Below are positions 205 through 15,774 of a stretch of DNA of 15,774 bases, in pieces; within the stretch, counting starts at the first letter, position 1; each line of letters opens with the position of its first letter. The stretch is from a bacterium. Lineage in GTDB: Bacteria > Patescibacteriota > Patescibacteriia > Patescibacteriales > GWC2-42-12. The DNA lies in contig JAZDFM010000026.1 in NCBI GenBank assembly GCA_043807825.1, positions 1-15,774 of the forward strand. The letters run 5' to 3'. The notes beneath the pieces are model-generated. The model made no database searches and was not told the DNA's origin. It saw nothing but the letters and a program-made list of their open reading frames with translations. A program made the position numbers and the translations under genes.

Positions 205-280
205 CGGCTGATTGCGGTGATAAAATAAAACAACTCGCAGTGTTATTTAAAAATAATTTTTTACAATTAAATTTTAACTT

Positions 281-442
281 ATGAAAAAACAAACCACAAA
301 AAAATTTACAAAAGAATGGGTTGAATTAACTCTTTGTGATATGGTTGACGAGGTTTTGCAATTTATGAGAAACGGAAAAAGCAAGGAGGAAATTTTAGAA
401 AGAATTAAAAATTATTCTGCCGAAATTTATAATGCGCAATAA
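281..442 (+). CDS. small hypothetical protein (53 aa)
   Basis: ATG at 281, TAA at 440-442. It is below the ORF-track length cutoff. Translation: MKKQTTKKFTKEWVELTLCDMVDEVLQFMRNGKSKEEILERIKNYSAEIYNAQ. The stop lies 2 nt before the ATG of the next ORF (445), which suggests translational coupling. No family recognised. Confidence 0.3.
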   Translation: MKKQTTKKFTKEWVELTLCDMVDEVLQFMRNGKSKEEILERIKNYSAEIYNAQ

Positions 443-444
443 TT

Positions 445-1209
445 ATGTCAAAAGAAAAATTAAAAATTTGTTTAGAAACATCGACTTATTTGCCGTTAAC
501 TTGGACAACGCCTTATTCGCAGGATGTGATAAATTTGATTCAGTATTACAGAAATGATGCTGATTTTTATATTCAAGATGATTGTTTGCTTGAGGCATTA
601 TCTTATGTCCACTATCAGAAAAATTGGTTCCGTCACGCTTCGGTAAGAATCAAAAAAATAGCTAAAATACTCACCGATAAACAATTAAATGAATTGTCAT
701 TTCCAAGCACAGCATTTCAAATTTTATTAGGCGGTAAAATGTGGGCGCAAGGTTTATATCTAAATTTTGTAAGGCATACAACATTTTTATACGCTGATTT
801 AGTTGATAAGGTTGATTTTTCAGAGAAAAGGAAGGGGCTTTTGCAGTTAGCAGGTTTGGTTGATAAAAGGTTTGAGGATTTACAAAACAAAATTGAGGGG
901 CATCTTGTTGCAAAGGAATTTGAAATAAATTTCAAAGAAATGTTGCCATATTGGGGAAAGTTTTATCTATTTATGGAATTACCAGAACCATTAAAAGTTA
1001 AAGTTTGGAAAATTGAAGAAAAATTCGTGAAAGGACCAGCAAGAATTAGAGATGTTTTCCATTATAAGAGTATGATAGATTCTAGTATGGGTTTTGAAAA
1101 AATGATCGTTGCTAATACCGGATTTTCTGCACATATCAAAAAAGAACTCGGCAGATTAGAAATAGAGCTTTTATGCGCCAAAAGCAGGCAGATGGAAATA
1201 TATGAGTAA
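445..1209 (+). CDS. hypothetical protein (254 aa), no recognisable family
   Basis: Long ORF in an AT-rich stretch with ATG start and TAA stop. Only short shadow ORFs on the opposite strand. I found no catalytic or structural motif I can name. Confidence 0.6.
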   Translation: MSKEKLKICLETSTYLPLTWTTPYSQDVINLIQYYRNDADFYIQDDCLLEALSYVHYQKNWFRHASVRIKKIAKILTDKQLNELSFPSTAFQILLGGKMWAQGLYLNFVRHTTFLYADLVDKVDFSEKRKGLLQLAGLVDKRFEDLQNKIEGHLVAKEFEINFKEMLPYWGKFYLFMELPEPLKVKVWKIEEKFVKGPARIRDVFHYKSMIDSSMGFEKMIVANTGFSAHIKKELGRLEIELLCAKSRQMEIYE

Positions 1210-1296
1210 TAAAAATATTTAATAAATAATAATTTCACGCTACGGTCTCTGTTGCAGGGTAATTTACAAATTTTTAAATTTTTTAACAACAACTCT

Positions 1297-1809
1297 ATGA
1301 CCAAACAATTTAAAATCACATTGGTTATTTTATTGATTGCTTCTGCGGCGCTGTTTTTGGGCAATTATTATTTTCAAAAATGGGTTGATTTCAAAATGGC
1401 CAAAGTGAGCATCGGACTGGCTGAAAGCAAGTTTCCATACAGAGAATATACTCAAGAAGAATTGAACAAGATGTATCCGCAGATACGATACGCCGATGTT
1501 CCCACAAGAACAACGCCGGAACAGACTTACTCCGCGCTGAAACAAGCGTTGAAAAATGAAGATGTGGAAGCGGCTGTAAATTGTTTCATTGAGGAAAAAC
1601 GGGGGGAGTGGAGAGAAAATTTAAAAAAAATAAAAGAAAAAGGATTTATGCAAGAGATGGAACAGGATTTAACTGAATTAAAATTGGAATTAGAGGGAGA
1701 AGCGAGGATGCAATATAGCTATAGTAAAGTCAAAGATGATAAGATTTATGGTTATTATATAGATTTTATAAAAGACATTAACGGCGACTGGAAAATAGAA
1801 AGCCTTTAA
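1297..1809 (+). CDS. N-terminally membrane-anchored hypothetical protein, paralog A
   Basis: I prefer the ATG at 1297 (MTKQFKITLVILLIASAALFLGNYYF, a TM helix right at the N-terminus) over the TTG at 1252. It shares the blocks Y(T)xEEL...P..Y.DVP...TPEQ.Y....QAL.N.D.E.A and a C-terminal DG.W motif with the next ORF. Confidence 0.7.
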   Translation: MTKQFKITLVILLIASAALFLGNYYFQKWVDFKMAKVSIGLAESKFPYREYTQEELNKMYPQIRYADVPTRTTPEQTYSALKQALKNEDVEAAVNCFIEEKRGEWRENLKKIKEKGFMQEMEQDLTELKLELEGEARMQYSYSKVKDDKIYGYYIDFIKDINGDWKIESL

Positions 1810-1899
1810 ATATAGACGCATTCGCGCGAATAAAGAGATTCCTTCCAGCAGAGCGGGACTTAAAATGACAATTTTTAATTAATTATTTTTATAAACCTT

Positions 1900-2367
1900 A
1901 TGCTAAAAAAAATCTTAAAAATTTTCGCAATCTGTTTCGGCCTATTTATTATTTTATATATCTGCTGGTCGGTTTATATAAAAATTCAAATTGATAAGGG
2001 GAATTTGATAAAATGGGATAACAAGTTTTACACCAAAGAAGAATTAAAGCAAGCCTTTCCTCCGCAAGAATACGATGTTCCTGCAAAAAATACTCCGGAA
2101 CAAGTCTACGCGGAATTCAGGCAAGCTTTGCTGAATAATGATATTGAAGGCGCGCTGGCGCAGATTAGGGAGAAGAACAGGGAAGAATACAGACAGGCTT
2201 TTAAAGATAAGGAAAAGTTTGATAAGTGGGTGAAAAGTTTGCCGGAAAAAATAACCGAGGAAAGCGAATTAGGAAATTTTTCTCATTATGATATTGATTA
2301 TGGAACAGAAAATAAAAATACAATTACTTTTATAAAAAACAGCGATGGTTATTGGCAAGTAGATTAG
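1900..2367 (+). CDS. N-terminally membrane-anchored hypothetical protein, paralog B
   Basis: ATG at 1900. TM helix IFAICFGLFIILYICWSVYI. Colinear with ORF 1297-1809 (YTKEELKQAFPPQEYDVPAKNTPEQVYAEFRQALLNNDIEGA, then SDGYWQVD). Confidence 0.7.
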   Translation: MLKKILKIFAICFGLFIILYICWSVYIKIQIDKGNLIKWDNKFYTKEELKQAFPPQEYDVPAKNTPEQVYAEFRQALLNNDIEGALAQIREKNREEYRQAFKDKEKFDKWVKSLPEKITEESELGNFSHYDIDYGTENKNTITFIKNSDGYWQVD

Positions 2368-2392
2368 ATATAATTGAACTGATTATAAAAAC

Positions 2393-5347
2393 ATGCCAAA
2401 CAAAATATTAAAATTATCAATTTCATTGATTTTGGTAATATCCGCTTGCTGTATTTTCAGCTATGACAATTTTACAACTCACCCGTTGCTGTCGGAATCA
2501 GCCGCCGCCGTGTATGGCAAACAAGCTGGCGCTAAATTAACCGATCAGCAAAAACAATGGATTATTAAAGGCTCAATCAATGAAGACATTGATCCGCGCT
2601 ATCTGAATCATTTTTACGATCCGACAACAGGCAAGGGATTGGACGGCTGGGATGTATATAAGAAATTTAACATAAAAGTCAATGGCAAATCAGCCAAACA
2701 ATGGGCGAAAAATCAAGACAGCGCCACTGGAGATTATTCTGAATCCGCGATTTTAAAAAATTATCAGGATGGCGATTTATCCCGCGCTTATCAGGGAATT
2801 GGCCATATTTTGCATTTAATACAGGATATGGCTGTTCCGGCGCATACAAGAAACGATCCGCATTCCGCCGGCGATCCTTATGAAAAATGGGCCGAACAAC
2901 ACGGAGCTATAGATTCAAGCAGATTGAATTTTATAGCTGTGGATAATCTTGATCAGGCTTTTGATAAAATGGCTAATTATTCTCATGATAATTTTTTCAG
3001 TAGAGATACAGTTAATGTTAATAATATAAAAAATTATAAAACAGCTATTGAATTAGTGGATGGTAAAAATAGAATGTATTTATTAAATACAACTGATAAT
3101 TATTTATATAAATTTGCTTATTCAAAAAATCCTGAATGGATTATGCCAGTTTTTCAAGTTGACGATGACCCCTCACTCCACCAAGACTACTGGAACATGC
3201 TTTATCCAAAAGCCGTGGGCTACAGCGCAGGAGCGATAGATTATTTTGTCAAACAATTCGCCAAAATTGATCAAGCTAAAAAAGAACAAGAGCAAATAAG
3301 TTTGTTTGATAAATTAAAAAATTCATTAGTTGGTTTAACCAATGAAGCAAAATATGTTTGGGGCGATGTATATATGGCGCAGAACAAAGTTTTGGCAAGC
3401 GGGTATGATAATATTGTGAAATTGGCTGGTAAAACTAAAAATAGCCTGCAATTTTCATATTCATACGCTAAACCGACCACTGCCCCCGCCCCTCTTCAAA
3501 TCACGGTGCAAGATAAGCCGGCCGGCAGGGTTTTAGCGGCTTCAGAACAGGCTGGACAGGGAGAAAAATTTCAAATCCCCCCTACCCCCTTTAATAAAGG
3601 GGGTGAAAATGCCAAGCCTGTTCAAACCGTGAATGTTCCGGCAGTCAAACAAACAGCGATTGCAAAAACTGTTAATCCTAAAATCCCCCCTGCCCCCTTT
3701 GATAAAGGGGGTGAAATCAAGCCTGAACCTAAAATCCCCCCTACCCACTTTGATAAAGGGGGAGAAGCCCCGGCAATGCATCGCAAAGGCTCTGACAGCC
3801 TGCCTCCGGAAACATCTATTTTATCGGCTCCGAATGCTGTAAGCAGTTCAACATCTGCCTCATTTGTTTTCTCTTCCAATGAAGCTGATTCTTCTTTTGA
3901 ATGCGATTTGGATAATGCCGGATGGCAGGAATGCTTGCCTGCGCAGGCGGGCGGCGTTACCAATTTAAGCAATCTGTCCGAAGGCTCGCATAATCTGAAA
4001 GTTAGAGCGCGGGACTTGTTAAACAATATTGACCAAACACCTGCCGAATATAATTGGATTGTTGACACTGTTGCTCCGATTGTGTCAATAACAAGCTATC
4101 CTCAATCAATTTCAACTTCAACAACCGCGAATTTTCAAATTGATTCAAATGAAAATGAAGCAAGTTTTATCTGCCAATTAGACATGAATCCGTGGCAGGA
4201 ATGCTCGGCAACGACAAGCGCGGCCGATTTGATTGACGGTTGGCATATTATGGAAGCCAAAGGAATTGATATTGCAGGAAACACAAGTTCGTCAACCGCG
4301 ATAACTTGGATTATTGACACCGCGGCTCCGGCATCGTCTGTTTCCGCGTTGCTCGCCGAATATCCATCAACCGGATTTTCCGTAAGCTGGAGCGGAACCG
4401 ATGGACAAGCTTCCACCACCAGCGGTTTGGCTGATTTTGACATTCAGTATAAAATAGGTTCAGGACAATGGCAGAATTGGATTATGGCAACAACCACAAC
4501 CAATGCTGTTTTTGATATTATTGTTAATAACGGCAGTTCTGTTTATTTTCGTTCTAGAGCTTCTGATTCAGCAGGCAATCTGGAAAATTGGCCGGACAAT
4601 GAAAACGGAGACGCAAGCGCGGCGATTGCGTCTTTACCTCCGGCGCAACCCCCGATTGTTTTAAGCGATGTTTCATCGGCATTAAGCAATTGGAAATCGT
4701 CTTTTTCATGGAAGCATACCGTCAATGGGAATGATCCTGTATTGGTGGTGAGTTTGCATGGAGACGGAGATTATCTTAATGACGATGCAGTGACATACGA
4801 TGGCCAAACATTGAGTTTGGCGGTTAAAAAGATTCATGGCGCGTATGACAATAAAGCCGTATTTATGTATTATCTTGCGAATCCGACTCAAGGGGAGCAT
4901 GATATAACCGCTAAAGTATGGGGATTGCCTTTCGCGGCTTCAGCAGCCACATTTTTAAACTGCGATATCTCAGATCCTGTGGGCTTGGCAGATTCATTTT
5001 TTAAATCGCAGTATGATTATGTGCGAACGATTCCTATGCCTGACTATGTTACGATGTCTAATTATGCCACAACAACTATCAACGGAATGATGCTGATTGA
5101 CGCTGTGACTTATGGCAGGTTTGATGATATTTCAGCAGCATCTCCAGGAGAAGGCCAAACGCAATATTTTGAACAAAAGAGTACTCCGCCGGGCGGAGCG
5201 TGGTTTGGACAAACTATTTATGATTATCTTTACGCGGGGCAAAGCTATAAGTTAGTTGAATCGGCCGGTTTGCATTCCATGGATTGGATAACAGACGATC
5301 CTCAATCCGCTGTTCATGTTATTATAGGATTGAATCCGAAGCCGTAA
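2393..5347 (+). CDS. large secreted/lipid-anchored surface protein: zinc phospholipase-C/S1-P1-nuclease-like N-domain, repeat-derived linker, tandem Ig-like/Fn3-like modules, unknown C-terminal domain
   Basis: 984-aa ORF. Signal peptide with a lipobox-like LVISAC. NHFYDP and GHILHLIQDMAVPAHTRNDPH resemble the His/Asp metal-ligand blocks of the Zn-dependent PLC/P1 nuclease fold. Two about 85-aa repeats (..SASFVFSSNEADSSFECDLDNAGWQEC..WIVDTVAP and ..TANFQIDSNENEASFICQLDMNPWQEC..WIIDTAAP, roughly 3803-4330) are followed by an Fn3-like module (FDIQYKIGSGQWQNW). Confidence 0.85.
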   Translation: MPNKILKLSISLILVISACCIFSYDNFTTHPLLSESAAAVYGKQAGAKLTDQQKQWIIKGSINEDIDPRYLNHFYDPTTGKGLDGWDVYKKFNIKVNGKSAKQWAKNQDSATGDYSESAILKNYQDGDLSRAYQGIGHILHLIQDMAVPAHTRNDPHSAGDPYEKWAEQHGAIDSSRLNFIAVDNLDQAFDKMANYSHDNFFSRDTVNVNNIKNYKTAIELVDGKNRMYLLNTTDNYLYKFAYSKNPEWIMPVFQVDDDPSLHQDYWNMLYPKAVGYSAGAIDYFVKQFAKIDQAKKEQEQISLFDKLKNSLVGLTNEAKYVWGDVYMAQNKVLASGYDNIVKLAGKTKNSLQFSYSYAKPTTAPAPLQITVQDKPAGRVLAASEQAGQGEKFQIPPTPFNKGGENAKPVQTVNVPAVKQTAIAKTVNPKIPPAPFDKGGEIKPEPKIPPTHFDKGGEAPAMHRKGSDSLPPETSILSAPNAVSSSTSASFVFSSNEADSSFECDLDNAGWQECLPAQAGGVTNLSNLSEGSHNLKVRARDLLNNIDQTPAEYNWIVDTVAPIVSITSYPQSISTSTTANFQIDSNENEASFICQLDMNPWQECSATTSAADLIDGWHIMEAKGIDIAGNTSSSTAITWIIDTAAPASSVSALLAEYPSTGFSVSWSGTDGQASTTSGLADFDIQYKIGSGQWQNWIMATTTTNAVFDIIVNNGSSVYFRSRASDSAGNLENWPDNENGDASAAIASLPPAQPPIVLSDVSSALSNWKSSFSWKHTVNGNDPVLVVSLHGDGDYLNDDAVTYDGQTLSLAVKKIHGAYDNKAVFMYYLANPTQGEHDITAKVWGLPFAASAATFLNCDISDPVGLADSFFKSQYDYVRTIPMPDYVTMSNYATTTINGMMLIDAVTYGRFDDISAASPGEGQTQYFEQKSTPPGGAWFGQTIYDYLYAGQSYKLVESAGLHSMDWITDDPQSAVHVIIGLNPKP
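3573..3610 (+). repeat. KGG-type miniature palindromic element, copy 1 (in-frame, encodes IPPTPFNKGGE)
   Basis: aaatcccccctaccccctttaataaagggggtgaaaat. Perfect 8-bp stem CCCCCTTT (3585-3592) / AAAGGGGG (3596-3603) with a 3-nt loop. Confidence 0.85.
3680..3717 (+). repeat. KGG-type miniature palindromic element, copy 2 (in-frame, encodes IPPAPFDKGGE)
   Basis: aaaatcccccctgccccctttgataaagggggtgaaat. Stem 3693-3700 / 3704-3711. Starts 108 nt after copy 1, a multiple of 3. Confidence 0.85.
3731..3767 (+). repeat. KGG-type miniature palindromic element, copy 3, slightly degenerate (encodes IPPTHFDKGGE)
   Basis: aaaatcccccctacccactttgataaagggggagaag. One stem mismatch (CCCACTTT). Starts 51 nt after copy 2, a multiple of 3. 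Confidence 0.8.
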
Positions 5348-5357
5348 GCGTATAAAA

Positions 5358-5900
5358 ATGGAAAAACAAAACAATAAAATAAATAATTCAGGCGGTTTTA
5401 CGATGATAGAGCTGTTAGCGGGCATTTTTATAATTGCCGTGATGAGCGGTTTTTTTATCGTTAATTACCATAACACGAACAAACGATCTGAATTGGGAGT
5501 TATCAAACAAAAATTGGCGTCAAACATAAGATTGGCGCAAAATTACAGTTTGGGATCAAAAACTTATGACGGAATCAACACCCCGGCCGGCGGATGGGGA
5601 GTTCATTTCAGCCTGTCGGATCCGAGCCATTATATAATTTTCGCGGATAAAAATTTGCCTAATGGAGATAAAACATATAACGCCGGCGAAGCCGTGGAAA
5701 CCGTATCTTTGCCTGACGGAATAACCATAAATTCCTTAAGCCCGGCGAATTCGGTTGATATTGTTTTTTTTCCGCCCGATCCGGTAACATATATTAACGG
5801 ATCAGGCAGTTCGCCGGCTAAAATAACTTTAAAAGAAAACATCAATAATTCAACCGCCGAAATTTCAGTTAATTTTTTCGGTTTGATTGACGCGAATTAA
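5358..5900 (+). CDS. type IV pilin-like / pseudopilin protein (GspH/FimT-like minor pilin)
   Basis: Prepilin class III leader and N-methylation motif: NNSGG|FTMIELLAGIFIIAVMSG, with Glu at +5. Starts 11 nt after the stop of the large surface-protein gene. Confidence 0.8.
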   Translation: MEKQNNKINNSGGFTMIELLAGIFIIAVMSGFFIVNYHNTNKRSELGVIKQKLASNIRLAQNYSLGSKTYDGINTPAGGWGVHFSLSDPSHYIIFADKNLPNGDKTYNAGEAVETVSLPDGITINSLSPANSVDIVFFPPDPVTYINGSGSSPAKITLKENINNSTAEISVNFFGLIDAN

Positions 5901-5901
5901 A

Positions 5902-6414
5902 ATGAAAATGAAAGTAATTTCAAATAATTCGGGAATAAGCATATTGGAAGTGATTGCCGCGGTCGCCATAATCGCCATAGGCATGGTCGGAGTTTTGTCG
6001 CTGGTAATTCAGAATGTTGAAGCGCAATATATAAATAAAAATATTTTAATGGCTTCCGGATTGGCGCAGGAAGGTTTGGAAATCGTCAGGAATATCAGGG
6101 ACGCCAATTGGCTGATTGAAGGCAACTTATGGAAACAAAATATAGTCGGAGACGGAACTTACACCGTAAGCTATGCCGGAATTTCAAGCGTTAACATGGC
6201 CGTAAATTCAATAAACGAAGCCGGCGCCAGATTGTATGTTGACGGCAACGGGCTTTATACCAATTCAGTTACGGCATCGGCGACGAATTTTTATCGCCTG
6301 ATAACTATTGTTGACAATGGAGATTATTTGGATGTGAAATGCGTTATCCGATGGGCCGACGGAACGCAAAACCATAATTACGCGGCTGAAACCTATTTAT
6401 ACGATTGGCGATAA
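5902..6414 (+). CDS. type IV minor pilin-like protein (PilV/GspI-like)
   Basis: I prefer the ATG at 5902, 2 nt after the upstream stop, over the TTG at 5887. Motif NNSG|ISILEVIAAVAIIAIGMVGVL with Glu+5. Confidence 0.75.
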   Translation: MKMKVISNNSGISILEVIAAVAIIAIGMVGVLSLVIQNVEAQYINKNILMASGLAQEGLEIVRNIRDANWLIEGNLWKQNIVGDGTYTVSYAGISSVNMAVNSINEAGARLYVDGNGLYTNSVTASATNFYRLITIVDNGDYLDVKCVIRWADGTQNHNYAAETYLYDWR

Positions 6415-6416
6415 AT

Positions 6417-6986
6417 ATGATATTATTATTCAAAAAAATAAAAGATAACAGAGGAGTGAGCTTGATAGAATTGGTTGTTTCAATTGCGATTTTTTCGGTT
6501 TTGATATTATCATCAACGCAAATATTCAAAATGGTCGTTGACGGCCAAAGAGGAGCCGTAAGCGCGCAAAATGTCCAGGATAGCATAAGATACGCCATGG
6601 AAAAAATAAGCAAAGAAATCAGAATGGCTCAAATCAGCAATGCTTCATGCTATGGCGCGGCTGTTTACAAAGTTTTCAATCCGGCGAACGGCGGAACGGA
6701 ATTGTATTTAAAAAACAAAGACGGCAATTGCGTAAATTATTATTTGGAAAACAACCGGCTGAAAATAATGTCCGGAACCGGCGCCGGAGCCATCGCCGAT
6801 TTCATAACTCCTGCCAAAATTGAAGTGAGCAATTTGAAATTTTATGTTAACGACGACTTGATTGGATCTTTCCACAGCAAACAGCCTTATGTAACCATGG
6901 CAATGGATATTAAAGCGGCCGGTCAGGCGATGCACGAGCAGAGAATGAAAATTCAAATGACTATTTCTTCAAGATATTATGAATAA
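6417..6986 (+). CDS. type IV minor pilin-like protein (PilW/GspJ-like)
   Basis: I prefer the ATG at 6417, 3 nt after the upstream stop, over the TTG at 6405. Motif DNRG|VSLIELVVSIAIFSVLIL with Glu+5. Confidence 0.7.
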   Translation: MILLFKKIKDNRGVSLIELVVSIAIFSVLILSSTQIFKMVVDGQRGAVSAQNVQDSIRYAMEKISKEIRMAQISNASCYGAAVYKVFNPANGGTELYLKNKDGNCVNYYLENNRLKIMSGTGAGAIADFITPAKIEVSNLKFYVNDDLIGSFHSKQPYVTMAMDIKAAGQAMHEQRMKIQMTISSRYYE

Positions 6987-7356
6987 TAATAACAAAAATC
7001 AAGAAGGCGTGATTTTGCTTTTAACCATGTTTATTTTGTCCGGAATTTTAATAGTTTCATTAGCCGCGGCTGATTTGATTTTTTTGGGAATAAGAATGAA
7101 CCGCCTTACAGGCTATTCCAATATCGCTTTTTTCGCTTCCGAGGCGGGCATGGAGCGGGCGCTGTGGGAGGCCAGAAAAAACGGCTATGTCCTTCCGAGC
7201 TCAAGCCAAAATAATATTTTTGAAAGTTTGAATATAGGGAATTCAAGCGCGTACCATGTGAATTACGCCACTTCCACTCCGGATGTTTTTTTGAAATCAA
7301 TCGGAGATTATTTGGGAGTTAAAAGATCGGTTGAAACTGTTTATCAGACGCAATAA
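6979..7356 (+). CDS. PilX-like minor pilin / pilus assembly protein
   Basis: The ATG overlaps the upstream stop (ATGAATAA, 8-nt overlap). The N-terminus NQEGVILLLTMFILSGILIVSLAAA is a hydrophobic pilin-like helix lacking Glu+5, as in PilX-type N-domains. Confidence 0.6.
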   Translation: MNNNNKNQEGVILLLTMFILSGILIVSLAAADLIFLGIRMNRLTGYSNIAFFASEAGMERALWEARKNGYVLPSSSQNNIFESLNIGNSSAYHVNYATSTPDVFLKSIGDYLGVKRSVETVYQTQ

Positions 7357-7360
7357 ATAG

Positions 7361-9457
<2,097 letters not shown>

Positions 9458-9474
9458 TTACGCATAATAAAAAC

Positions 9475-9768
9475 ATGAATTTGTCTAAAGACGAAATAAA
9501 GCATATCGCCAAATTGGCCAGGCTGGAATTGACTGACGCCGAATTGGAAAAATACGGCGGACAGCTGTCGGCTGTTTTGAATTATATAGATCAATTAAAA
9601 GAAGTTGATGTAAAAGGAATTGAGCCTATGGCGCAGGCTTCATGCTTGGAAAATGTTTTGCGGGAAGATGAAATAAAAAATTGGGATGAGCAAGAAATTG
9701 AAGAAGCTCTAGCCGGAGCGCCGGAAAGGGAAGGCGGGTTTATAAAAGTTAAAAGAGTGATTGAATAA
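9475..9768 (+). CDS. gatC: Asp/Glu-tRNA(Asn/Gln) amidotransferase subunit C
   Basis: 97 aa. IKHIAKLARLELTDAELEKYGGQLSAVLNYIDQLKEVDVKGIEP is the canonical GatC pattern. It sits directly upstream of gatA. Confidence 0.9.
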   Translation: MNLSKDEIKHIAKLARLELTDAELEKYGGQLSAVLNYIDQLKEVDVKGIEPMAQASCLENVLREDEIKNWDEQEIEEALAGAPEREGGFIKVKRVIE

Positions 9769-9779
9769 AAATATTATAT

Positions 9780-9848
9780 TGTCATCCTCGCGAAAGCGGG
9801 GATCCATTCAGATTTTAAATCTGGATTCCCGCCTGCGCGGGAATGACA
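9780..9848. repeat. 69-bp nested inverted-repeat (REP/MITE-like) element in the gatC-gatA spacer
   Basis: tgtcatcctcgcgaaagcggggatcca...ctggattcccgcctgcgcgggaatgaca. The arms match at about 22 of 27 positions when one is reverse-complemented. Each arm also folds on its own (CTCGC-GAAA-GCGGG and CCCGC-CTGC-GCGGG). In the gatA frame it reads SSSRKRGS..LDSRLRGNDK. Confidence 0.8.
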
Positions 9849-9856
9849 AATTAAAT

Positions 9857-11320
9857 ATGACATTAAATCAATTAACAATAGCTGAAGCTATAAAAAAGCT
9901 TGATAAAAAAGAAATCACCTCGGTTGAACTTGCCAAGGCGTGTTTGACGCGCGTAAAAAATATTGACGGAAAAATCAAGGCGTGTCTGGCGGTTTGCGAA
10001 GAACAGGCGATGAAAGACGCGGAAAAAGCCGATGAGCGGCGCGCTCAAGGCGAAACTGGAGAATTGCTCGGCATCCCGTATTTTGCCAAAGATAATATTT
10101 TGACTCGCGGCGTAAAAACCACGGCTGCTTCCAAAATTTTGGAAAATTACATCGCGCCTTATGACGCGTCTATTATAAAAAAATTAAAGCGAGCCGGCGC
10201 GGTTCTTTTGGGAAAAACCAATTTGGATGAATTCGCCCATGGGGCTTCAACTGAAAATTCCGCTTTTGGGACGACGCGCAATCCATGGGATTTGTCCCGC
10301 GTTCCCGGGGGTTCTTCCGGCGGGTCGGCCGCCGCGGTCGCGGCTGATATGTGTTTGTTCGCTTTGGGAACGGATACCGGAGGCTCAATCAGATGCCCGG
10401 CAAGTTTTTGCGGAGTCGTCGGCATGAAGCCGACTTATGGCAGAAGCTCCCGCTTCGGCTTGATCGCGATGACAAGCTCAACCGATGTTCCCGGGCCTTT
10501 GGCGAAAACCGTGGGAGACGCCGCGATGATCTTGTCCGCTATCGCGGGAAAAGACGGGAATGATGGGACAACAGTTAAAATCCCCCTTACCCCCTTTGTT
10601 AAAGGGGGTAAAATGCAAGGCTTAACTATCGGCTTGCCTGAAGAATATTTTGTTGAAGGTGCGGAAAAAGGCGTGGAGCAAGCGGTGGAAAAAGCCATTG
10701 AAGATTTGAAAAAACTTGGCGTTAAGTTTAAAAAAGTGAGCCTGCCGCATACGAAATACGGCGTGCCTGCTTACTATATCATCACTCCTTCGGAAATAAG
10801 CTCAAATTTGGCAAGATTTGACGGCATTAAATACGGTTTAAGCATAAACGGCGAAGAAAAGATAAAAGCGGATTTGGCGGATGTCTACGCCAAAAGCCGA
10901 GGAAAAGGCTTTGGTGCCGAAGCCAAACGGAGAATTATGCTCGGAACTTACGCTTTGAGCGCCGGTTATTTTGACGCGTATTATCTGCAGGCGCAAAAAG
11001 TGAGAGTTAAGATAAAACAGGAATTTGACGAAGTTCTGAAGCAAGTTGACTGCCTGCTTACGCCGACCGCTCCGCATGTCGCTTTTAAAATCGGCGAGCA
11101 GTCAGGCGATCCTTTAAAAATGTATCTTGAAGATATTTTCGTTACCGGCGCGTCTTTGGCCGGGTTGCCAGCGATTTCCATTCCATGCGGTTTCAGCCGC
11201 GGCATGCCTGTAGGACTTCAACTGATTGGCAGGCATTTTAATGAAGACTTGCTGTTTAAAATAGGCAATGGTTATGAACAAGCAACGGAATGGCATTTGA
11301 AAAAAGCCGAAATTGTTTAA
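9857..11320 (+). CDS. gatA: Asp/Glu-tRNA(Asn/Gln) amidotransferase subunit A
   Basis: Start placed at ATG 9857 (MTLNQLTIAEAIKKLDKKEITSVEL, a typical GatA N-terminus). Amidase signature GGSSGGSAAAVAA and DTGGSIR. The ORF-track start at 9761 only adds translation of the intergenic repeat. Confidence 0.93.
   Translation: MTLNQLTIAEAIKKLDKKEITSVELAKACLTRVKNIDGKIKACLAVCEEQAMKDAEKADERRAQGETGELLGIPYFAKDNILTRGVKTTAASKILENYIAPYDASIIKKLKRAGAVLLGKTNLDEFAHGASTENSAFGTTRNPWDLSRVPGGSSGGSAAAVAADMCLFALGTDTGGSIRCPASFCGVVGMKPTYGRSSRFGLIAMTSSTDVPGPLAKTVGDAAMILSAIAGKDGNDGTTVKIPLTPFVKGGKMQGLTIGLPEEYFVEGAEKGVEQAVEKAIEDLKKLGVKFKKVSLPHTKYGVPAYYIITPSEISSNLARFDGIKYGLSINGEEKIKADLADVYAKSRGKGFGAEAKRRIMLGTYALSAGYFDAYYLQAQKVRVKIKQEFDEVLKQVDCLLTPTAPHVAFKIGEQSGDPLKMYLEDIFVTGASLAGLPAISIPCGFSRGMPVGLQLIGRHFNEDLLFKIGNGYEQATEWHLKKAEIV
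10577..10614 (+). repeat. KGG-type miniature palindromic element, copy 4, in-frame inside gatA (encodes IPLTPFVKGGK)
   Basis: aaaatcccccttaccccctttgttaaagggggtaaaat. Stem 10590-10597 / 10601-10608. Same strand and same codon phase as the three copies in the surface-protein gene. Confidence 0.85.
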
Positions 11321-11349
11321 TTTTAATTTTTACGCTATAATAGCGAGTA

Positions 11350-11772
11350 ATGAATAAAAAAGATTTAAAAATAATCGGGGCGATGCTTTATGTATGCGAA
11401 GGCACTAAAGCAAGAATTGACAGGAGATATAATAGATTGCTTTATTCTGTTGAATTAACTAATTCAGACCCTAAAATTATAAAAATTTTTAGATTATTTC
11501 TTGATAACATAATAAAAATTGATAAAAATCGCATAAGAGGGCAATTATTTTTTTATCCGGATTTGAATGAAAAAAGATTGATAAATTTTTGGTCAAAAAT
11601 ATCTTCTATCCCATTTTCACAATTTAATAAAAGCATATGTTTAAAAGCGAAAAATGGTAAATTTAAAGCAAATCCTTTGGGGACATTTAAAATAAGGTAT
11701 AGTTGCAAAAAGGATTTTTTAAAAATACAAAAAATGATAGATGATGTTTGGAGAGATGCAAGAGTGGCTTAA
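11350..11772 (+). CDS. hypothetical protein, possible single-motif LAGLIDADG-like homing endonuclease
   Basis: 140-aa AT-rich ORF. The N-terminal IIGAMLYVCEGTK fits the hhGhhh.(D/E)G pattern of LAGLIDADG motifs, and the size is compatible with homodimeric enzymes. This assignment is weak. The last 23 nt overlap tRNA-Ser. Confidence 0.45.
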   Translation: MNKKDLKIIGAMLYVCEGTKARIDRRYNRLLYSVELTNSDPKIIKIFRLFLDNIIKIDKNRIRGQLFFYPDLNEKRLINFWSKISSIPFSQFNKSICLKAKNGKFKANPLGTFKIRYSCKKDFLKIQKMIDDVWRDARVA

Positions 11773-11837
11773 TTGGCAGTCCTGGAAAGACTGTATACCG
11801 CAAGGTATCCAGGGTTCGAATCCCTGTCTCTCCGCCA
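11750..11837 (+). tRNA. tRNA-Ser (anticodon GGA), class II with long variable arm, CCA encoded
   Basis: Folded by hand. Acceptor GGAGAGA/TCTCTCC. 3-bp D stem (CAA/TTG). Anticodon stem CAGTC/GACTG with loop CTGGAAA. Variable arm ATACC-GCAA-GGTAT. T arm CAGGG-TTCGAAT-CCCTG. Discriminator G, then CCA. Confidence 0.9.
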
Positions 11838-11881
11838 GATTTCCAAGTTTGAACCGAAGTAAGATAAGGGGTTTTGGACAA

Positions 11882-11906
11882 AAAAGCTGGGCACCACCCA
11901 GCTTTT
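11882..11906. terminator. intrinsic (potentially bidirectional) terminator downstream of tRNA-Ser
   Basis: AAAAGCTGGG-cacca-CCCAGCTTTT. The GC-containing stem AGCTGGG/CCCAGCT has a 5-nt loop and is flanked by an A-tract upstream and a T-tract downstream. Confidence 0.6.
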
Positions 11907-11923
11907 AAGTTTTGTGCAGTTGT

Positions 11924-11968
11924 TTGCTATATGGCAATTTGGAATATAACACAATGGAATAATATAAT
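11924..11968 (+). promoter_or_regulatory. candidate promoter and C-box-like operator for the controller-protein/endonuclease operon
   Basis: TTGGAA (11939-11944), 18-nt spacer, TATAAT (11963-11968). The -10 ends only 8 nt before the ATG at 11977, implying a leaderless or near-leaderless mRNA. An imperfect palindrome TTGCTATATGGCAA (11924-11937, 12/14 symmetric) abuts the -35. Confidence 0.4.
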
Positions 11969-11976
11969 ATCAACAT

Positions 11977-12198
11977 ATGCCGAGAGCAATATATACAAAA
12001 GATCATAACGCAATCGTTGAACGCTTGAAGACAGCTCGTATTGAGGCTGGACTTGGGCAGGTTGAAGTTGCAAAGAAACTCGGAAAAACTCAATCTTATC
12101 TTTCAAAAATTGAATCAGGGCAAAGACGATTTGATGTATTACAGTTGAAAGAATTTGCAAAGATTTATAATAAATCATTAGACTATTTTGTTAAATAA
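11977..12198 (+). CDS. XRE-family helix-turn-helix protein, likely R-M controller (C) protein
   Basis: 73 aa. RLKTARIEAGLGQVEVAKKLGKTQSYLSKIESGQRRFDVLQL is the classic HTH_3 pattern (Q..lA...g.s...is..E.G.r). Its stop is 3 nt before the next ORF. Confidence 0.8.
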   Translation: MPRAIYTKDHNAIVERLKTARIEAGLGQVEVAKKLGKTQSYLSKIESGQRRFDVLQLKEFAKIYNKSLDYFVK

Positions 12199-12201
12199 TT
12201 T

Positions 12202-12897
12202 ATGTTAGTACAAAAATTCGATAATTTTCTACAATCAGTTGACCTAAAATCCTATCGGGATAAATATAGACCTATTAAAATTGTGGAAATGGATTTACCA
12301 AAAGAGATCCAAGCTATAAACTTACTCTACAAAATATATTGGAACAAGAAAGAGTTCTTGAGTTTTGAAAAATTTTATGAAGAATACCTAAAAGAGTATG
12401 GGGCTGATATTAAAAAATTTCAAGAAAAGACTGGGATGTGCGAGAAGTGTTTTAGTAAAGGATTGCCCGCGAGAATTTATAGAACATGGGCAAGCATTAT
12501 TACTCAGATACATGCTGGCTATGTAGCGGAGTCGGTTTTCGGTGTTGGTACAGTTTCAATGTCAGGGGAGCTTGATCATCAAGGGGCTGATTTTCAAATT
12601 CTGTATAAAGGAAAAATTCTAAATTATCAAGTAAAAAAGAAATCATTCAGTGGTGAGGTAAGACGCGGTAAAGGCGGAGTTAAAACTAAAATAGCTGGCG
12701 AATTTATTGATATTAATTACGAAGTTCCAAGTAGTGATTACTTCGAAAATCCAAAGAAAAAAGACGGTGAGTATAAACTTCCGTACAAAAGATTTCAAGA
12801 TAACAAGGAATTAAAAAGATTTTCAAATGGTTTTGTAGTTTTTACTTCTTACGCTTTTGAACAAAAGAAAAAAGAGATTGATGTAAACTTAAAATAA
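12202..12897 (+). CDS. candidate type II restriction endonuclease (PD-(D/E)xK-like), otherwise hypothetical
   Basis: 231 aa. Placement follows the usual C-then-R operon order, convergent with a methyltransferase. ELDHQGADFQILYKGKILNYQVKKK can be read as E...D-x13-QxK on alternating hydrophobic strands. I recognise no specific REase family, so the functional call rests mainly on context. Confidence 0.45.
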   Translation: MLVQKFDNFLQSVDLKSYRDKYRPIKIVEMDLPKEIQAINLLYKIYWNKKEFLSFEKFYEEYLKEYGADIKKFQEKTGMCEKCFSKGLPARIYRTWASIITQIHAGYVAESVFGVGTVSMSGELDHQGADFQILYKGKILNYQVKKKSFSGEVRRGKGGVKTKIAGEFIDINYEVPSSDYFENPKKKDGEYKLPYKRFQDNKELKRFSNGFVVFTSYAFEQKKKEIDVNLK

Positions 12898-14415
12898 TTT
12901 AGGAATAACTGTTACGGAAGAAATAGTTTTTTCGGCAATTTTTATATAATCAGGATTAATTTCAAACCCGATATAATTTTGACTCAACTCTTTTGCGGCT
13001 GCACATTCAGCCCCTGTTCCGACAAAGGGAACCAAAACCACTCCATCTTTTTTAGGCATGGCTGATTTTATTAATTTTCTGCAAATTTCTAATGGCTTTT
13101 GTGTTGGGTGTTTAACTATCTCGTGATCAGCGTGTTTTTTTAGTTCTCTTGGCTCAAAAACATTTCTTCCACAGGTATTACAGATAAACCATCTTTCATT
13201 CATACCGGCTCCTCCGGCTAATGCTGGTATTTTTATTACATCTCTTGGCAAGGCACCACCCTCGTGTGCCTTATAAACAGTTTCTTGACCGTTTGTACTG
13301 TATCGTCCAATTGTTCCTTTGCGTATTTTCCCAGCCGCTCCATTTAAAAAACCCTCAGTGTACGGCTCTCTTACTTCGTCACGATTAAAAACTGGGCTAT
13401 TTTTCCAAGCACAAATTATAGATTCATGGCTTCGTTGCCAAAAATTTAGAGAAGCAACATTTTTGTTTGTGTAATGCCAAATAAGCCACCTTTTACTTAT
13501 CGGTATTTCAACCGAAAGATAAGCAAGAATTTCGCTAAAACCATAAATAAACATTGTGCCGGTTGGTTTTAAGACTCTAATAGATTCATCTATCCAACTT
13601 TTTGACCAACGAATGTACTCGTTCATTTCTCGTTTATCCATGTTATTACCAAAATCTTTGCCGATATTATATGGTGGATCAATTATAATAACATCACAAC
13701 ATTCATCTGGTAATTTTCTTAATTCTTCAACTGCGTCATTTAAAATAATTTGATTGAGTGGTAATTTATTATTTCGTTTAATATTTTTTGATGTAATCAA
13801 CTCTTCTACAAAATTATTTTCATCGTTTTTTATTACATCAATTACAATACCCTGTATTGTTAGCGGAGTTTGTTTGGAAATAATTATGGGATCCATTGTT
13901 CTGTTGGCTGGCTGAAGTCTAATATGTCCTCTTTCCTTGTAAAACTTTTTTAATGTGGTTTCATAATTATCAATCAACGCTACAATCTTTTGTCCATTTT
14001 CGGCAGTATCTTGTTGTTTAACTAACACGACATCACCATCATTAATATTCTCTTCGATCATGCTGTTACCAATAACTCTTAATGCATAAAAATTGCCGTG
14101 GCTCGGTAATTTGCTCTGTGGTACAGCAACGATTTCTTTTTCTTTAATTGCTTCGATTGGTTGCCCGGCTGCAATATTCCCCATAAGCGGAATATTTATC
14201 ATTTTTTCACTCTCAAAAACAGAAATTGCTCTTGGCTGGTTATCTTCTTTTCTTAAAAAACCTTTTTCTTGAAGTTTTTTAATATGAAAATGGGCAGTAG
14301 AAACAGAAGCTATTTTTAGATGTTTCTTAATTTCTTCAAGAGAAGGGGCATATTTATGCTTGGAATAATATTGTTTTATAAAATCCAAGACATCTTTTTG
14401 TTTTTTAGTAAGCAT
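12889..14415 (-). CDS. LexA-like repressor/autoprotease fused to a beta-class (DPPY) N6-adenine/N4-cytosine DNA methyltransferase
   Basis: I prefer the ATG at 14415 (MLTKKQKDVLDFI, a typical LexA N-terminus) over the TTG at 14430. LexA part: wHTH, then Ala83-Gly84 in IAAGQPIEA, Ser118 in GNSM, Lys156 in TLKKF. MTase part: IIIDPPYN (13669-13680), HPTQKP, and a C-terminal VPFVGTGAE...GFEINPDY (motif IV before motif I, which defines the beta class). The stop overlaps the convergent ORF by 9 nt. Confidence 0.85.
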   Translation of the reverse strand: MLTKKQKDVLDFIKQYYSKHKYAPSLEEIKKHLKIASVSTAHFHIKKLQEKGFLRKEDNQPRAISVFESEKMINIPLMGNIAAGQPIEAIKEKEIVAVPQSKLPSHGNFYALRVIGNSMIEENINDGDVVLVKQQDTAENGQKIVALIDNYETTLKKFYKERGHIRLQPANRTMDPIIISKQTPLTIQGIVIDVIKNDENNFVEELITSKNIKRNNKLPLNQIILNDAVEELRKLPDECCDVIIIDPPYNIGKDFGNNMDKREMNEYIRWSKSWIDESIRVLKPTGTMFIYGFSEILAYLSVEIPISKRWLIWHYTNKNVASLNFWQRSHESIICAWKNSPVFNRDEVREPYTEGFLNGAAGKIRKGTIGRYSTNGQETVYKAHEGGALPRDVIKIPALAGGAGMNERWFICNTCGRNVFEPRELKKHADHEIVKHPTQKPLEICRKLIKSAMPKKDGVVLVPFVGTGAECAAAKELSQNYIGFEINPDYIKIAEKTISSVTVIPKLF

Positions 14416-14419
14416 ATTA

Positions 14420-14481
14420 TTGACAGACAATTTTTGTTAGGTGTATAATAGTATTATAGAAAATAAATAGAAAACTTACAA
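14420..14481. promoter_or_regulatory. overlapping divergent promoter pair with palindromic and phased-repeat candidate operator
   Basis: Plus strand: TTGACA (14420-14425), 18-nt spacer, TATAAT (14444-14449). Minus strand: TTGTAA (complement of 14476-14481), 17-nt spacer, TATAAT (complement of 14453-14458). The two -10 boxes form the palindrome TATAATAgTATTATA (14444-14458). ATAGAAAA occurs twice, 11 bp apart (14456-14463 and 14467-14474). Confidence 0.5.
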
Positions 14482-14503
14482 TAGCCCACTTATCCACAAC
14501 TGC

Positions 14504-15475
14504 ATGCCAAAATCATTTTTTTCAGAAAAAATAGATTTAATAATGAAATCTAGGGAGGCCATGCTTTCTGCTGTTCAGATTTATAATAATCCACTGATTT
14601 TATTTAAAACAGAATCTTTTATTGTCCTTTCTTTAATTGCATGGACTTATCTTTTGCATTCGCACTACAGAGCGATCGGGGTTGATTACAGATATTTTGA
14701 AAAAAATGGTTCCCGAAAAAGATTTATTAAAAATCCTGACGGAAGTATAAAATATTGGGATCTTAAGGAATGTATTTCAAAAGAATTTTGTCCGCTAGAT
14801 AAAGATACGAATAATAATCTTTCATTTTTAATTGGTTTAAGAAATCAAATAGAACATCGTAAGGCAAGCGGATTAGATTCTTGTCTCTCAGCTCGCTATC
14901 AGGCCCGTGCTTTAAATTTGAATTTTTATCTTAAAAAATTGCATGGTGAAAAATACGGACTTGATAATAACTTGGCATTAAGCTTGCAGTTTTCAGAATT
15001 AGACGATTCGCAATCAAAGATATTAAAAGATAAAGAATCCTTAATACCTCAAAATATTATTTCTTATCTTGCTGATTTTGATAGTAAGTTATCGGAAAGC
15101 GAAATAAAAAGCGATCGTTTTGCATACCGTCTTTTATTTACTAAGGTTTTAGCAAAAAGGAAGGGGCAAGCCGATCGCGTTATTGAGTTCATAGATCCAA
15201 AGTCTGATTTAGCAAAGAATATTTCTAAAGAATATTGGATCAAAGAAGAAACAGAAAAGCCAAAATTTTCAGCCACTCAGACAATTCAAAAGGTAAGAGA
15301 AGCAGGATATAAAAATTTTAGTATGCATCAGCACACGCAATTTTGGCAAAAACATGATGGAAAAAATCCAAATAAGGGATTCGGTTCAATGATTGTCAAA
15401 ACTTGGTGTTGGTATCAAAATTGGGCGGATTATATTATTAGCGAATTAAACAAGATAAAAAAAATAATTATTTAA
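14504..15475 (+). CDS. DUF3644-like protein with HEPN-type Rx4H motif (candidate RNase / abortive-infection effector)
   Basis: 323 aa. The N-terminal AVQIYNNP...ESFIVLSLIAWTYLLHS resembles the DUF3644 pattern as I remember it. LIGLRNQIEHR (R113 at 14840-14842, H118 at 14855-14857) matches the HEPN R-N-x-x-x-H signature seen in AbiD/AbiF-type proteins. Confidence 0.55.
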   Translation: MPKSFFSEKIDLIMKSREAMLSAVQIYNNPLILFKTESFIVLSLIAWTYLLHSHYRAIGVDYRYFEKNGSRKRFIKNPDGSIKYWDLKECISKEFCPLDKDTNNNLSFLIGLRNQIEHRKASGLDSCLSARYQARALNLNFYLKKLHGEKYGLDNNLALSLQFSELDDSQSKILKDKESLIPQNIISYLADFDSKLSESEIKSDRFAYRLLFTKVLAKRKGQADRVIEFIDPKSDLAKNISKEYWIKEETEKPKFSATQTIQKVREAGYKNFSMHQHTQFWQKHDGKNPNKGFGSMIVKTWCWYQNWADYIISELNKIKKIII

Positions 15476-15641
15476 TCGAATAATCAACCTCATTTTTGCC
15501 CCTGTTGGACTCTGGGCGAGGTGTTTCAAACCATTCCGGATGAACCTTGAAGATACGCCTTAATTCCTGTATGCTTTTATCAATATCCTTGAATTTGAGC
15601 CGCTTTTTCGGTTCAAACTTCGGGACATCGTCCCCGCCAAT
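15468..15641 (-). pseudogene. possible start-less gene remnant (57 codons)
   Basis: Hand translation of the minus strand: IGGDDVPKFEPKKRLKFKDIDKSIQELRRIFKVHPEWFETPRPESNRGKNEVDYSIK*. It is bounded upstream by TAA and has no ATG/GTG/TTG start. Composition is protein-like, and the region is more GC-rich than the island beside it. Confidence 0.2.
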
Positions 15642-15678
15642 TTACAGTTTCTCAAAAATATTTTAAAATATAAAGAAC

Positions 15679-15774
15679 ATGAAGTTTAAAAACAAAGGTT
15701 TTACTATAATAGAATTAATGGTAGTAGTAGCCATTATCGGCATCTTAACTGCTCTTATAACTATTTCTTTTTCT
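15679..15774 (+). CDS. type IV pilin (prepilin) N-terminal fragment, continues beyond the window
   Basis: MKFKNKG|FTIIELMVVVAIIGILTALITISFS. Canonical class III leader, with Phe+1 and Glu+5 followed by a hydrophobic helix. Confidence 0.8.
   Translation, partial: MKFKNKGFTIIELMVVVAIIGILTALITISFS

Follow-up and report, generated by a model that had tools for sequence, protein, structure and literature searches.

The DNA analysed here, called the window, is a stretch of 15,774 nucleotides (nt) from a bacterium of the Patescibacteriota (assembly GCA_043807825.1, contig JAZDFM010000026.1, positions 1 to 15,774). Close to its right end lies a gene for a DUF3644/HEPN protein. It is divergent from a gene in which a LexA repressor is fused to a DNA methyltransferase (MTase), and both belong to a small cassette that encodes a type II restriction-modification (R-M) system. 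An earlier note on this DNA had proposed that the DUF3644 protein is a second-line RNase effector, de-repressed when the LexA moiety is cleaved. The gene and its parts are as follows.

14504..15475, + strand: DUF3644/HEPN protein gene of the PADLOC PDC-S19 type; an ATG-started open reading frame (ORF) of 323 amino acids (aa) plus stop
14537..15088, + strand: N-terminal HEPN (DUF3644) domain, aa 12-195, from the Pfam envelope and an AlphaFold2 model
14840..14857, + strand: Rx4H motif RNQIEH (R113...H118), putative catalytic site, from a motif search and homologue alignments
15089..15472, + strand: C-terminal half, aa 196-323, from the AlphaFold2 model made from 129 sequences

The DUF3644 protein and its Rx4H motif

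The protein had been called DUF3644-like in the earlier note, and this holds, since Pfam PF12358 is matched far above its cutoff (E=6.1e-52; 176.3 bits vs a gathering cutoff of 27.6). The match covers aa 12-195 and positions 2-182 of the 183 in the model. The PADLOC hidden Markov model (HMM) PDC-S19 (PDLC04948) was matched over its full length (E=6.7e-127, 421 bits, aa 4-318 of 323), and no NCBIfam model matched the protein. PDC-S19 is a single gene associated with defence islands and R-M systems. It is a computational candidate only, and no regulatory partner for it was described in the literature found.

The string LIGLRNQIEHR, pointed out in the earlier note, was confirmed at aa 109-119 with Asn directly after the Arg. 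The occurrence of an Rx4-6H string by itself was dropped as evidence, since 60% of composition-preserving shuffles of the protein contain one. The motif is meaningful because R113/H118 is the sole such string in the protein and because it is conserved in close and distant members. Among 121 close homologues, H118 is invariant and R113 is Arg in 120 and Lys in one. The equivalents of both residues are invariant across 14 distant members (23-38% identity to the first sequence of the alignment). With 129 sequences aligned (40-92% identity to the query), H118 is again invariant and R113 is kept in at least 90%. The position after the Arg is occupied by N or H in the aligned DUF3644 homologues, which is reportedly typical of HEPN families.

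Profile comparison thus gave both a family match and conservation of the R/H pair. The ORF is, as judged from its sequence, a genuine DUF3644/HEPN defence-candidate protein and a predicted RNase; RNase activity, toxicity and abortive infection by this protein we infer. In the passages of Anantharaman et al. 2013 (PMC3710099) that concern the family, DUF3644 is placed in the HEPN superfamily, overlaps the 'EC042_2821' family and is found in R-M operons. Our protein shares with that family the PF12358 match, the Rx4H motif and the occurrence with R-M genes. The fusions listed there are with a winged helix-turn-helix (wHTH), a restriction endonuclease (REase) and a Zn-ribbon, whereas the subfamily of the window has its own C-terminal half of ~125 aa without a detectable match. 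A LexA::MTase partnership is not mentioned for the 'EC042_2821' family in those passages.

The family is large and widely spread. Homologues of the protein number 1727 at E<1e-5, the best 120 of which are 69-92% identical, and at E<1e-3 there are 1107 clusters (50% identity). The best homologues come from unrelated phyla, including Patescibacteria, Zixibacteria and Xanthobacteraceae, among others. Identities of 69-92% across unrelated phyla indicate horizontal spread of the family.

The AlphaFold2 model was built on the diversified 129-sequence alignment and reached a mean predicted local distance difference test (pLDDT) of 81. Its N-terminal part contains helices at 8-28, 35-57, 100-116 and 124-147 (pLDDT ~90-97), plus a small hairpin insert. 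Structural comparison supported the HEPN assignment only in part. When the models were compared with the PDB by Foldseek, HEPN proteins alone passed a target TM-score of 0.5, among them 2hsb (TMt 0.74, root mean square deviation 3.9, prob 0.90) and HepT (7bxo_G, TMt 0.57), but all E-values were at least 0.4. No match at E<1e-3 was found with two models against the PDB, plus BFVD. The modelled N-terminal fold, set against the four-helix up-down bundle of the HEPN superfamily, therefore weakly resembles HEPN structures only.

The C-terminal half is modelled less evenly. Residues 164-170, 211-232 and 240-250 are poorly modelled, and aa 251-322 form a confident alpha/beta module (helices 257-266 and 274-283, a hairpin at 294-303 and a long helix at 305-322; pLDDT 86-95). 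Four residues (G268, G294, W301, Y304) do not vary among the 129 sequences, and four more (H277, W281, W303, W307) are kept in at least 90% of them. The domain is retained at full length in relatives down to ~30% identity. No match to the C-terminal half was found in Pfam, among PDB sequences or among PDB and BFVD folds, and a PDB sequence search with the family profile plus a C-terminal sub-profile gave nothing significant.

This C-terminal module bears on one alternative, in which the protein is a non-catalytic HEPN or regulator. The R and H would then bind nucleotide or nucleic acid without cleaving it, the C-terminal module would bind DNA, and the protein would be an R-M accessory. By eye, helices 257-266 and 274-283 with the hairpin at 294-303 have a winged-helix-like topology, wHTH fusions are among those listed for the DUF3644 family in the passages cited above, and Foldseek gives no fold significant support. 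However, R and H are conserved together with N/H after the R, which is the catalytic signature, and the equivalent His is required for defence in a relative, HEC-08. We consider a non-catalytic role very improbable.

HEC-08 is an anti-phage protein whose activity is abolished by mutating the motif His (Payne et al. 2024, bioRxiv 10.1101/2024.01.29.577857). Like the protein of the window, it has an N-terminal HEPN domain (annotated as DUF3644) with Rx4-6H and is a single gene among defence genes. It differs in its C-terminal zinc fingers, while the C-terminal half of our protein has no Cys clusters. Membership in HEC-08 was rejected, given an hhalign probability of 0.2 with the published sequence and the lack of a Cys-rich C-terminus in the window protein. 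HEC-08 itself gave no match to the current PF12358 model at E<0.05.

A second comparison is with Ishtar1/2, monogenic HEPN anti-plasmid systems; Ishtar clears plasmid RP4 (bioRxiv 10.64898/2026.07.06.735840). A related function in the window would be to clear incoming replicons, for example by degrading RNA primers. By description, the Ishtar proteins are alike in having an N-terminal HEPN domain (DUF4145 or, in one, DUF3644) and a small C-terminal alpha/beta domain of 5-7 strands and 3 helices, and in being patchily distributed near defence genes. Taken together, our two models have 3 helices and ~5 short strands after the linker, two of the strands being confined to the low-confidence first model. 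The Ishtar supplementary tables do not contain PDC-S19 in the PADLOC lists of the ist1 and ist2 strains, so the Ishtar proteins appear to lie outside the PDC-S19 subfamily. No LexA or R-M linkage is reported for them. Also, the family of the window protein is itself plasmid-borne: its members are carried by 27 plasmids, and are found near the ends of Streptococcus prophage/satellite genomes. These points make an Ishtar-like function improbable.

The LexA::MTase fusion and the shared control region

The following features make up the divergent gene and the spacer between the two genes.

12889..14415, - strand: LexA::MTase fusion, 508 aa from ATG 14415; Pfam LexA_DNA_bind, Peptidase_S24 and N6_N4_Mtase
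14420..14449, + strand: sigma-70 promoter into DUF3644; TTGACA 14420-14425, 18 nt, TATAAT 14444-14449; 12 of 12 consensus positions
14453..14481, - strand: LexA::MTase promoter; TTGTAA 14481-14476, 17 nt, TATAAT 14458-14453; 10 of 12 consensus positions
14444..14458, no strand: palindrome TATAATA-G-TATTATA, two face-to-face -10 boxes, seen in the sequence
14456..14474, no strand: direct repeat ATAGAAAA-N3-ATAGAAAA with an 11-bp period, putative LexA-domain operator, from a repeat search
14490..14498, + strand: TTATCCACA, a perfect DnaA-box consensus; 2 matches in the window vs 0.14 expected

The fusion carries a LexA helix-turn-helix (HTH) plus S24 domain at ~13840-14415 and an N6/N4 MTase domain at ~12928-13695. 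Its start is most likely ATG 14415 (MLTKKQ...) and not the mechanical TTG 14430. The LexA moiety scored 190 bits with TIGR00498 (lexA) vs an equivalog cutoff of 111. As predicted from the sequence, the repressor carries the residues for RecA-stimulated autocleavage, an Ala-Gly site and a Ser-Lys dyad (A83-G84, Ser118 and Lys156). All 29 aligned fusions keep an A/S/T-G cleavage site together with the Ser nucleophile and the Lys base.

All of the best 120 fusion clusters listed (71-96% identical) have the same three domains. For TaqI-type fusions, the named clusters among these best 120 are almost all from Patescibacteria, and the NCBI name is 'transcriptional repressor LexA'. No description of LexA-MTase fusions or of their pairing with a HEPN gene was found in open-access text of the literature. 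A fusion of LexA to a different enzyme, a C5-cytosine MTase, was seen at 449-2029 (-) of comparison locus L012 (such loci are labelled with an L). It has 526 aa and the same promoter layout (box, -35, CGAA-N7-CGAA repeat, TATAAT), and is divergent from a Vsr mismatch endonuclease gene at 2122-2532 (+); DUF3644 lies 8 kb off on the same contig.

That the DUF3644 gene shares its promoter region with the LexA-MTase gene, as noted earlier, was confirmed: the spacer is 88 nt long and holds two divergent, overlapping promoters. Promoters and operators were assigned from sequence only. The leftward promoter has the same layout at every LexA::MTase locus examined, and comparable strong rightward promoters lie just upstream of the repeat in L005, L008, L025, L105 (by eye) and L004. 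In linked loci with spacers of at least 74 nt, a strong rightward promoter precedes the repeat (by eye). Where the spacer measures 57 nt, the MTase transcript would have no leader, and there is an overlapping, weaker promoter of the extended -10 type.

Within the MTase promoter, the direct repeat occupies the 17-nt spacer; relative to the DUF3644 promoter, its position corresponds to about +1 to +19. Every LexA fusion promoter inspected has, directly against its -10 box, a repeat of the form [TC][AC]GAA[ACT]-N5-[TC][AC]GAA[ACT], whose half-sites covary between lineages (TAGAAA, CCGAAAG, TCGAAAA, ACGAAC). Of the regions upstream of DUF3644, 9 of 12 that are linked to LexA and 0 of 93 that are unlinked contain the repeat (Fisher p=7e-11), and all 7 of the LexA::MTase loci that lack DUF3644 contain it too. 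The pattern TAGAAA[AG]N4TAGAAA has 24 matches in 1.7 Mb of fetched sequence, and all of them are at LexA::MTase promoters. We infer that the direct repeat is a putative operator of the fused LexA. The LexA box of the Alphaproteobacteria is GTTC-N7-GTTC, and the half-site and 11-bp direct-repeat geometry recall it. SOS-type co-repression of both promoters, as predicted from this arrangement, is architecturally well supported.

Two other elements of the spacer were considered as operators and rejected. TATAATA/TATTATA was read as two -10 boxes, since its spacing varies between loci. The TTATCCACA box precedes the ATG of DUF3644 by 5 nt and the -35 box of the MTase promoter by 8 nt. A TTATCCACA / TGTGGATAA box was found in L001, L002, L004, L005, L008, L025, L012, L088, L123, L138 and L141-L143, at 6-8 nt from the leftward -35 (counted by eye) and 5-7 nt before the DUF3644 ATG. 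TTATCCACA is present in all LexA-linked loci and absent from unlinked loci of the genome collection. Loci with non-LexA MTases (L088, L123) have it too, it occurs in both orientations and its position varies (L008, L025, L095, L138), and it was rejected because the GAAA direct repeat, unlike the box, tracks LexA strictly. One possibility for its role is DnaA-coupled MTase expression. A stand-alone lexA upstream region was also tried as an SOS-box reference: the site in L022 is palindrome-like and different (by eye), and the 'lexA' of L012 is another fusion.

Recurrence of the linkage and the proposed circuit

A LexA::MTase gene is divergent from DUF3644 in the window and in L001/2, L004, L005, L008, L025, L094, L097, L105 and L129. 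The co-occurrence with S24/LexA-MTase fusions that the earlier note had suggested looking for is not a one-off: of the non-redundant loci with at least 74% identity, 8 of 30 show it. The count is 10 of 57 at 60% or more, and below 60% no linked locus was found, which confines the linkage to the close clade of the window protein. The REases of linked loci include TaqI-like enzymes, an EndoVII/HNH-like 169-aa protein and unrelated proteins of 289, 315 and 432 aa. Linked fusions therefore have at least five different REase partners, and their MTase domains are 22-28% identical to that of the window where aligned. Because the REases differ and the MTase domains are so divergent, the linkage is not one cassette copied repeatedly. 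In L004, L005, L025, L094 and L097, DNA homology with the window is confined to 13889-15448, which holds the LexA domain, the spacer and DUF3644.

Small ORFs between the LexA fusion and DUF3644 were seen in L095 (5661-5954, a 98-aa GIY-YIG protein) and L122 (an ORF at ~3100-3380). The repeat of L095 has the form ACGAAC-N5-ACGAAC.

LexA::MTase units also occur alone. DUF3644 was missing from 7/7 LexA::MTase/TaqI units looked up, in 6 of which a TaqI-like REase is paired with the fusion. The pairing of LexA::MTase with DUF3644 is thus recurrent but facultative, because of these seven units and because most homologues are without LexA. One such locus, L136 (2694-3889, -), has a 217-aa protein in the divergent slot, followed by a PycTM-domain gene. 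The 217-aa protein was considered as a second HEPN protein in the same slot. It was not counted, with a marginal PF05168 score of 24 bits and no Rx4-6H.

The neighbourhood of the whole family was surveyed through 94 non-redundant upstream and 93 downstream genes. Homologues are associated with R-M genes, which make up roughly a third of the upstream neighbours. The upstream set contains 17 N6_N4 MTase, 8 HsdS, 5 D12, 2 Eco57I, 2 N6_Mtase and 1 C5 genes, counts that may overlap, and 10 of the 94 carry a LexA HTH plus S24. The downstream neighbours are heterogeneous, with no conserved partner or antitoxin among the 93. No NTP_transf-type (MNT) neighbour was found among the 25 most frequent families on either side, so the protein was not identified with the HEPN-MNT type II/VII toxin-antitoxin systems.

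In at least two loci, L027 and L115, the gene order is hsdS-DUF3644-hsdR with gaps of 6-7 nt on the hsdS side. These homologues probably share a transcript with the type I genes. In that event the protein would not be toxic through its expression alone, and de-repression alone, which the earlier note had taken as the trigger, is judged an unlikely trigger. The type I HsdR directly downstream of the homologue in L027 (6245-9745) bears a C-terminal Peptidase_S24 domain (E=2e-8). Here, as judged from sequence, a LexA-type autoprotease domain has been joined to an R-M subunit a second time and independently.

PrrC of EcoprrI and RloC are HEPN anticodon nucleases embedded in type I R-M loci, and the position of DUF3644 between hsdS and hsdR resembles theirs. 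By analogy, an R-M-embedded position suggests the logic of a latent second-line nuclease. The protein was not identified with PrrC or RloC, as Pfam detected only DUF3644 and no N-terminal ABC-ATPase domain. A further contrast is that the window pairs the gene with a type II system, and that control would be exerted on transcription, by LexA. One alternative is that the protein is nevertheless a PrrC-like guard, a latent HEPN nuclease that watches over the R-M enzymes or responds to another cue and is activated only post-translationally (e.g. by phage anti-restriction factors). It would lie beside LexA only incidentally, inserted at a permissive cassette edge and without meaningful control by LexA. 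The hsdS-DUF3644-hsdR order is that of prrC in the prr locus, the family is mostly without LexA linkage, at least two of the LexA::MTase units without DUF3644 keep the divergent promoter, and the conserved C-terminal domain could serve as a sensor. However, the linkage is found again with at least five different R-M enzyme sets, and what stays homologous among them is the block made up of LexA domain, spacer and DUF3644, which fits poorly with an incidental neighbour. The linked loci with spacers of at least 74 nt also place the operator between a strong rightward promoter and the DUF3644 start, and the ABC-ATPase domain of PrrC is absent from the Pfam matches. We regard this alternative as rather unlikely, though as a serious contender.

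We lean, without great confidence, towards a composite explanation: a HEPN effector rides on an R-M cassette, is repressed by LexA::MTase and induced through RecA, and stays latent until its C-terminal half meets a trigger. In this view, a mobile type II R-M cassette has picked up, at its edge, a single-protein HEPN-type effector. A consensus promoter would drive the effector gene, and the first ~20 bases of the transcript would coincide with the operator for the repressor that the cassette itself encodes, a complete LexA (HTH plus S24 autoprotease) at the N-terminus of the methyltransferase. Dimers of LexA::MTase would bind the 11-bp-spaced direct repeat and thereby silence the promoter of their own gene as well as that of the divergent DUF3644 gene. 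Degradation of phage or under-methylated self DNA by the REase or by host nucleases would lead to filaments of RecA on single-stranded DNA. These would stimulate cleavage at A83-G84 and thereby release the DNA-binding domain. De-repression would then raise both the MTase, for self protection, and the HEPN protein as a second line, and the HEPN protein would cleave RNA and arrest the cell or the invader. A second, post-translational trigger is expected because the type I-embedded homologues are probably expressed constitutively. The HEPN protein would thus be latent until its conserved C-terminal half senses that trigger, in a PrrC-like guard logic, and LexA control would adjust its amount without being the only switch.

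The second-line effector under LexA that the earlier note had proposed is therefore retained in part. Family, R/H pair, recurrent linkage, a repeat that tracks LexA and the cleavage residues all speak for it, but the coupling is facultative. Several further points weigh against our composite explanation. Most family members are not linked to LexA, and of 47 non-redundant homologues below 74% identity two are linked. At least L140 and L143, which are without DUF3644, keep a strong divergent promoter in the same place (by eye). The divergent promoter may therefore belong to the R-M unit's own circuit, with DUF3644 merely landed downstream. No Shine-Dalgarno sequence is seen before the DUF3644 ATG (by eye), and the TTATCCACA box occupies its position. 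RecA-stimulated cleavage and operator binding are predicted for a LexA that bears a 300-aa C-terminal MTase. The Foldseek E-values given above are not significant, all comparison loci are metagenome assemblies, and PDC-S19, a subfamily without experiments, had no mention in the open-access text of the literature.

Costly defences that are raised upon DNA damage are known from other systems. Regulators of defence that respond to DNA damage include CapH/CapP for the cyclic oligonucleotide-based antiphage signalling system (CBASS) and the WYL-type BrxR/CapW, and there are LexA-repressed toxins and colicins. The circuit proposed for the window would share with these the raising of a costly defence or toxin upon DNA damage and a protease-dependent release of the repressor. 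It differs in its sensor, a bona fide LexA fused to an R-M MTase, with a putative private operator.

More broadly, Patescibacteria may carry self-contained, mobile 'SOS-wired' immune cassettes, in which LexA fused to the MTase would be a private damage sensor and one operator would couple R-M to RNA-targeting immunity. Breaks left by restriction of invader or self DNA would set off RecA-dependent self-cleavage, raise methylation and free a latent HEPN RNase from one bidirectional control region. LexA domain, operator and DUF3644 would then be a portable module that recombines with different MTase/REase specificities. This generalization is tentative, and we consider it possible rather than probable.

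HEPN effectors beside R-M genes are a known theme and DUF3644 is already a listed defence candidate, so the protein alone would be an ordinary new member. A full LexA fused to a type II MTase, with a private and co-evolving operator, is not described in the open-access literature. This arrangement is abundant in Patescibacteria and is repeatedly paired with a HEPN gene, with one site predicted to control both. If the composite explanation is true, the cassette would be a compact and testable case of a first-line defence that signals its activity or failure to a second-line effector through RecA/LexA. It would also provide a handle on gene regulation and immunity in organisms not yet cultured, and a very small (3.8 kb) cassette suited to heterologous reconstitution.

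The cassette and its surroundings

The remaining features of the cassette and its ends are listed here.

11832..15640, no strand: mobile four-gene cassette (HTH_3, REase, LexA::MTase, DUF3644), from nucleotide identity and GC content
11750..11837, + strand: tRNA-Ser(GGA), abutting the left end of the cassette; ARAGORN
11977..12198, + strand: 73-aa HTH_3 protein, encoded upstream of the REase and a candidate for a C-protein-like controller; PF01381, E=1e-14
12202..12897, + strand: TaqI-like type II REase; PF09573, E=8e-36; PADLOC REase_II
15473..15640, - strand: conserved ~55-codon frame at the right end of the cassette (endings ...FEPKKRLKFKDIDKSIQELRRIFKVHPEWFETPRPESNRGKNEVDYSI and ...VHPEWFETPRPESNRGKNEVDYSI, each followed by a stop), from sequence comparison

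The cassette is ~3.8 kb long and the DUF3644 gene is last in order. Over exactly ~11832-15640, the window is 83-90% identical at the nucleotide level to L001, L002/L083 and L082, and the flanks are unrelated. The GC content of the cassette is 0.31-0.36 vs 0.39-0.50 in the ligA/gatA windows. Within it, the REase gene is convergent with the MTase gene and their 3' ends overlap by 9 nt. The HTH_3 gene co-occurs with the LexA-linked cassettes L001, L002, L004, L005, L008, L025, L094 and L097.

A tRNA-Ser gene lies beside cassettes elsewhere, at 7055-7142 of L001, 56-149 of L002, 1861-1954 of L083 and 5224-5313 of L140. The cassette adjoins tRNA-Ser in four genomic contexts with three anticodons (GGA, CGA, GCT). 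This suggests insertion of the R-M cassette directed by tRNA-Ser, and no integrase was seen. Because of its unrelated flanks, its AT-richness and its adjacency to tRNA-Ser, the cassette is a small mobile island. No RNA family was found in the window by Rfam at the gathering threshold, so that the tRNA-Ser reported by ARAGORN was missed as well.

The mobility of the cassette bears on another alternative, in which the DUF3644 protein is an SOS-induced dormancy or addiction toxin. It would be expressed when the repressor-methylase is lost or cleaved and, like other SOS-induced toxins, would arrest cells from which the R-M cassette is lost or whose DNA is damaged. It would thus stabilise the cassette rather than act against phage. 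This would agree with a private operator found only at cassette promoters in 1.7 Mb, with the position beside tRNA-Ser between flanks that are unrelated among loci, and with a very strong consensus DUF3644 promoter that would fire upon decay of the repressor. However, there is no antitoxin-like partner and no conserved downstream gene, and homologues lie in type I R-M loci or alone on plasmids without such a repressor. Post-segregational killing is, in addition, already provided by R-M systems. An addiction role is therefore unlikely in our judgement.

The ~55-codon frame at the right end (15473-15640, -) converges on the DUF3644 stop codon and has no canonical start in the window. It is without frameshifts in L001, L002, L081, L082 and L127 and partly conserved in L003. 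No Pfam match was found for it. It could be what is left of a gene, or a small gene whose start is unusual. At the other end, a terminator-like hairpin with a perfect 10-bp stem (AAAAGCTGGG/CCCAGCTTTT) lies at 11882-11906, between tRNA-Ser and the HTH_3 promoter and inside the conserved cassette.

TCGA, the TaqI site, is strongly depleted across the whole window, with 7 observed vs ~31 expected by a trinucleotide Markov estimate. Such a depletion would fit a long history of exposure to an R-M system specific for TCGA. Elsewhere in the window, the peptide motif IP(P/L)(T/A)(P/H)F.KGG(E/K) occurs three times in a 984-aa ORF (2393-5347) and once in a GatA-like ORF (9761-11320), and could stem from a DNA element that is repeated and translated within different genes. 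Type IV pilin-like/pseudopilin genes with N-terminal GFT(M/L)IEL motifs are clustered at 5358-7356, and a further prepilin-like gene (15680-15774) begins right after the cassette.

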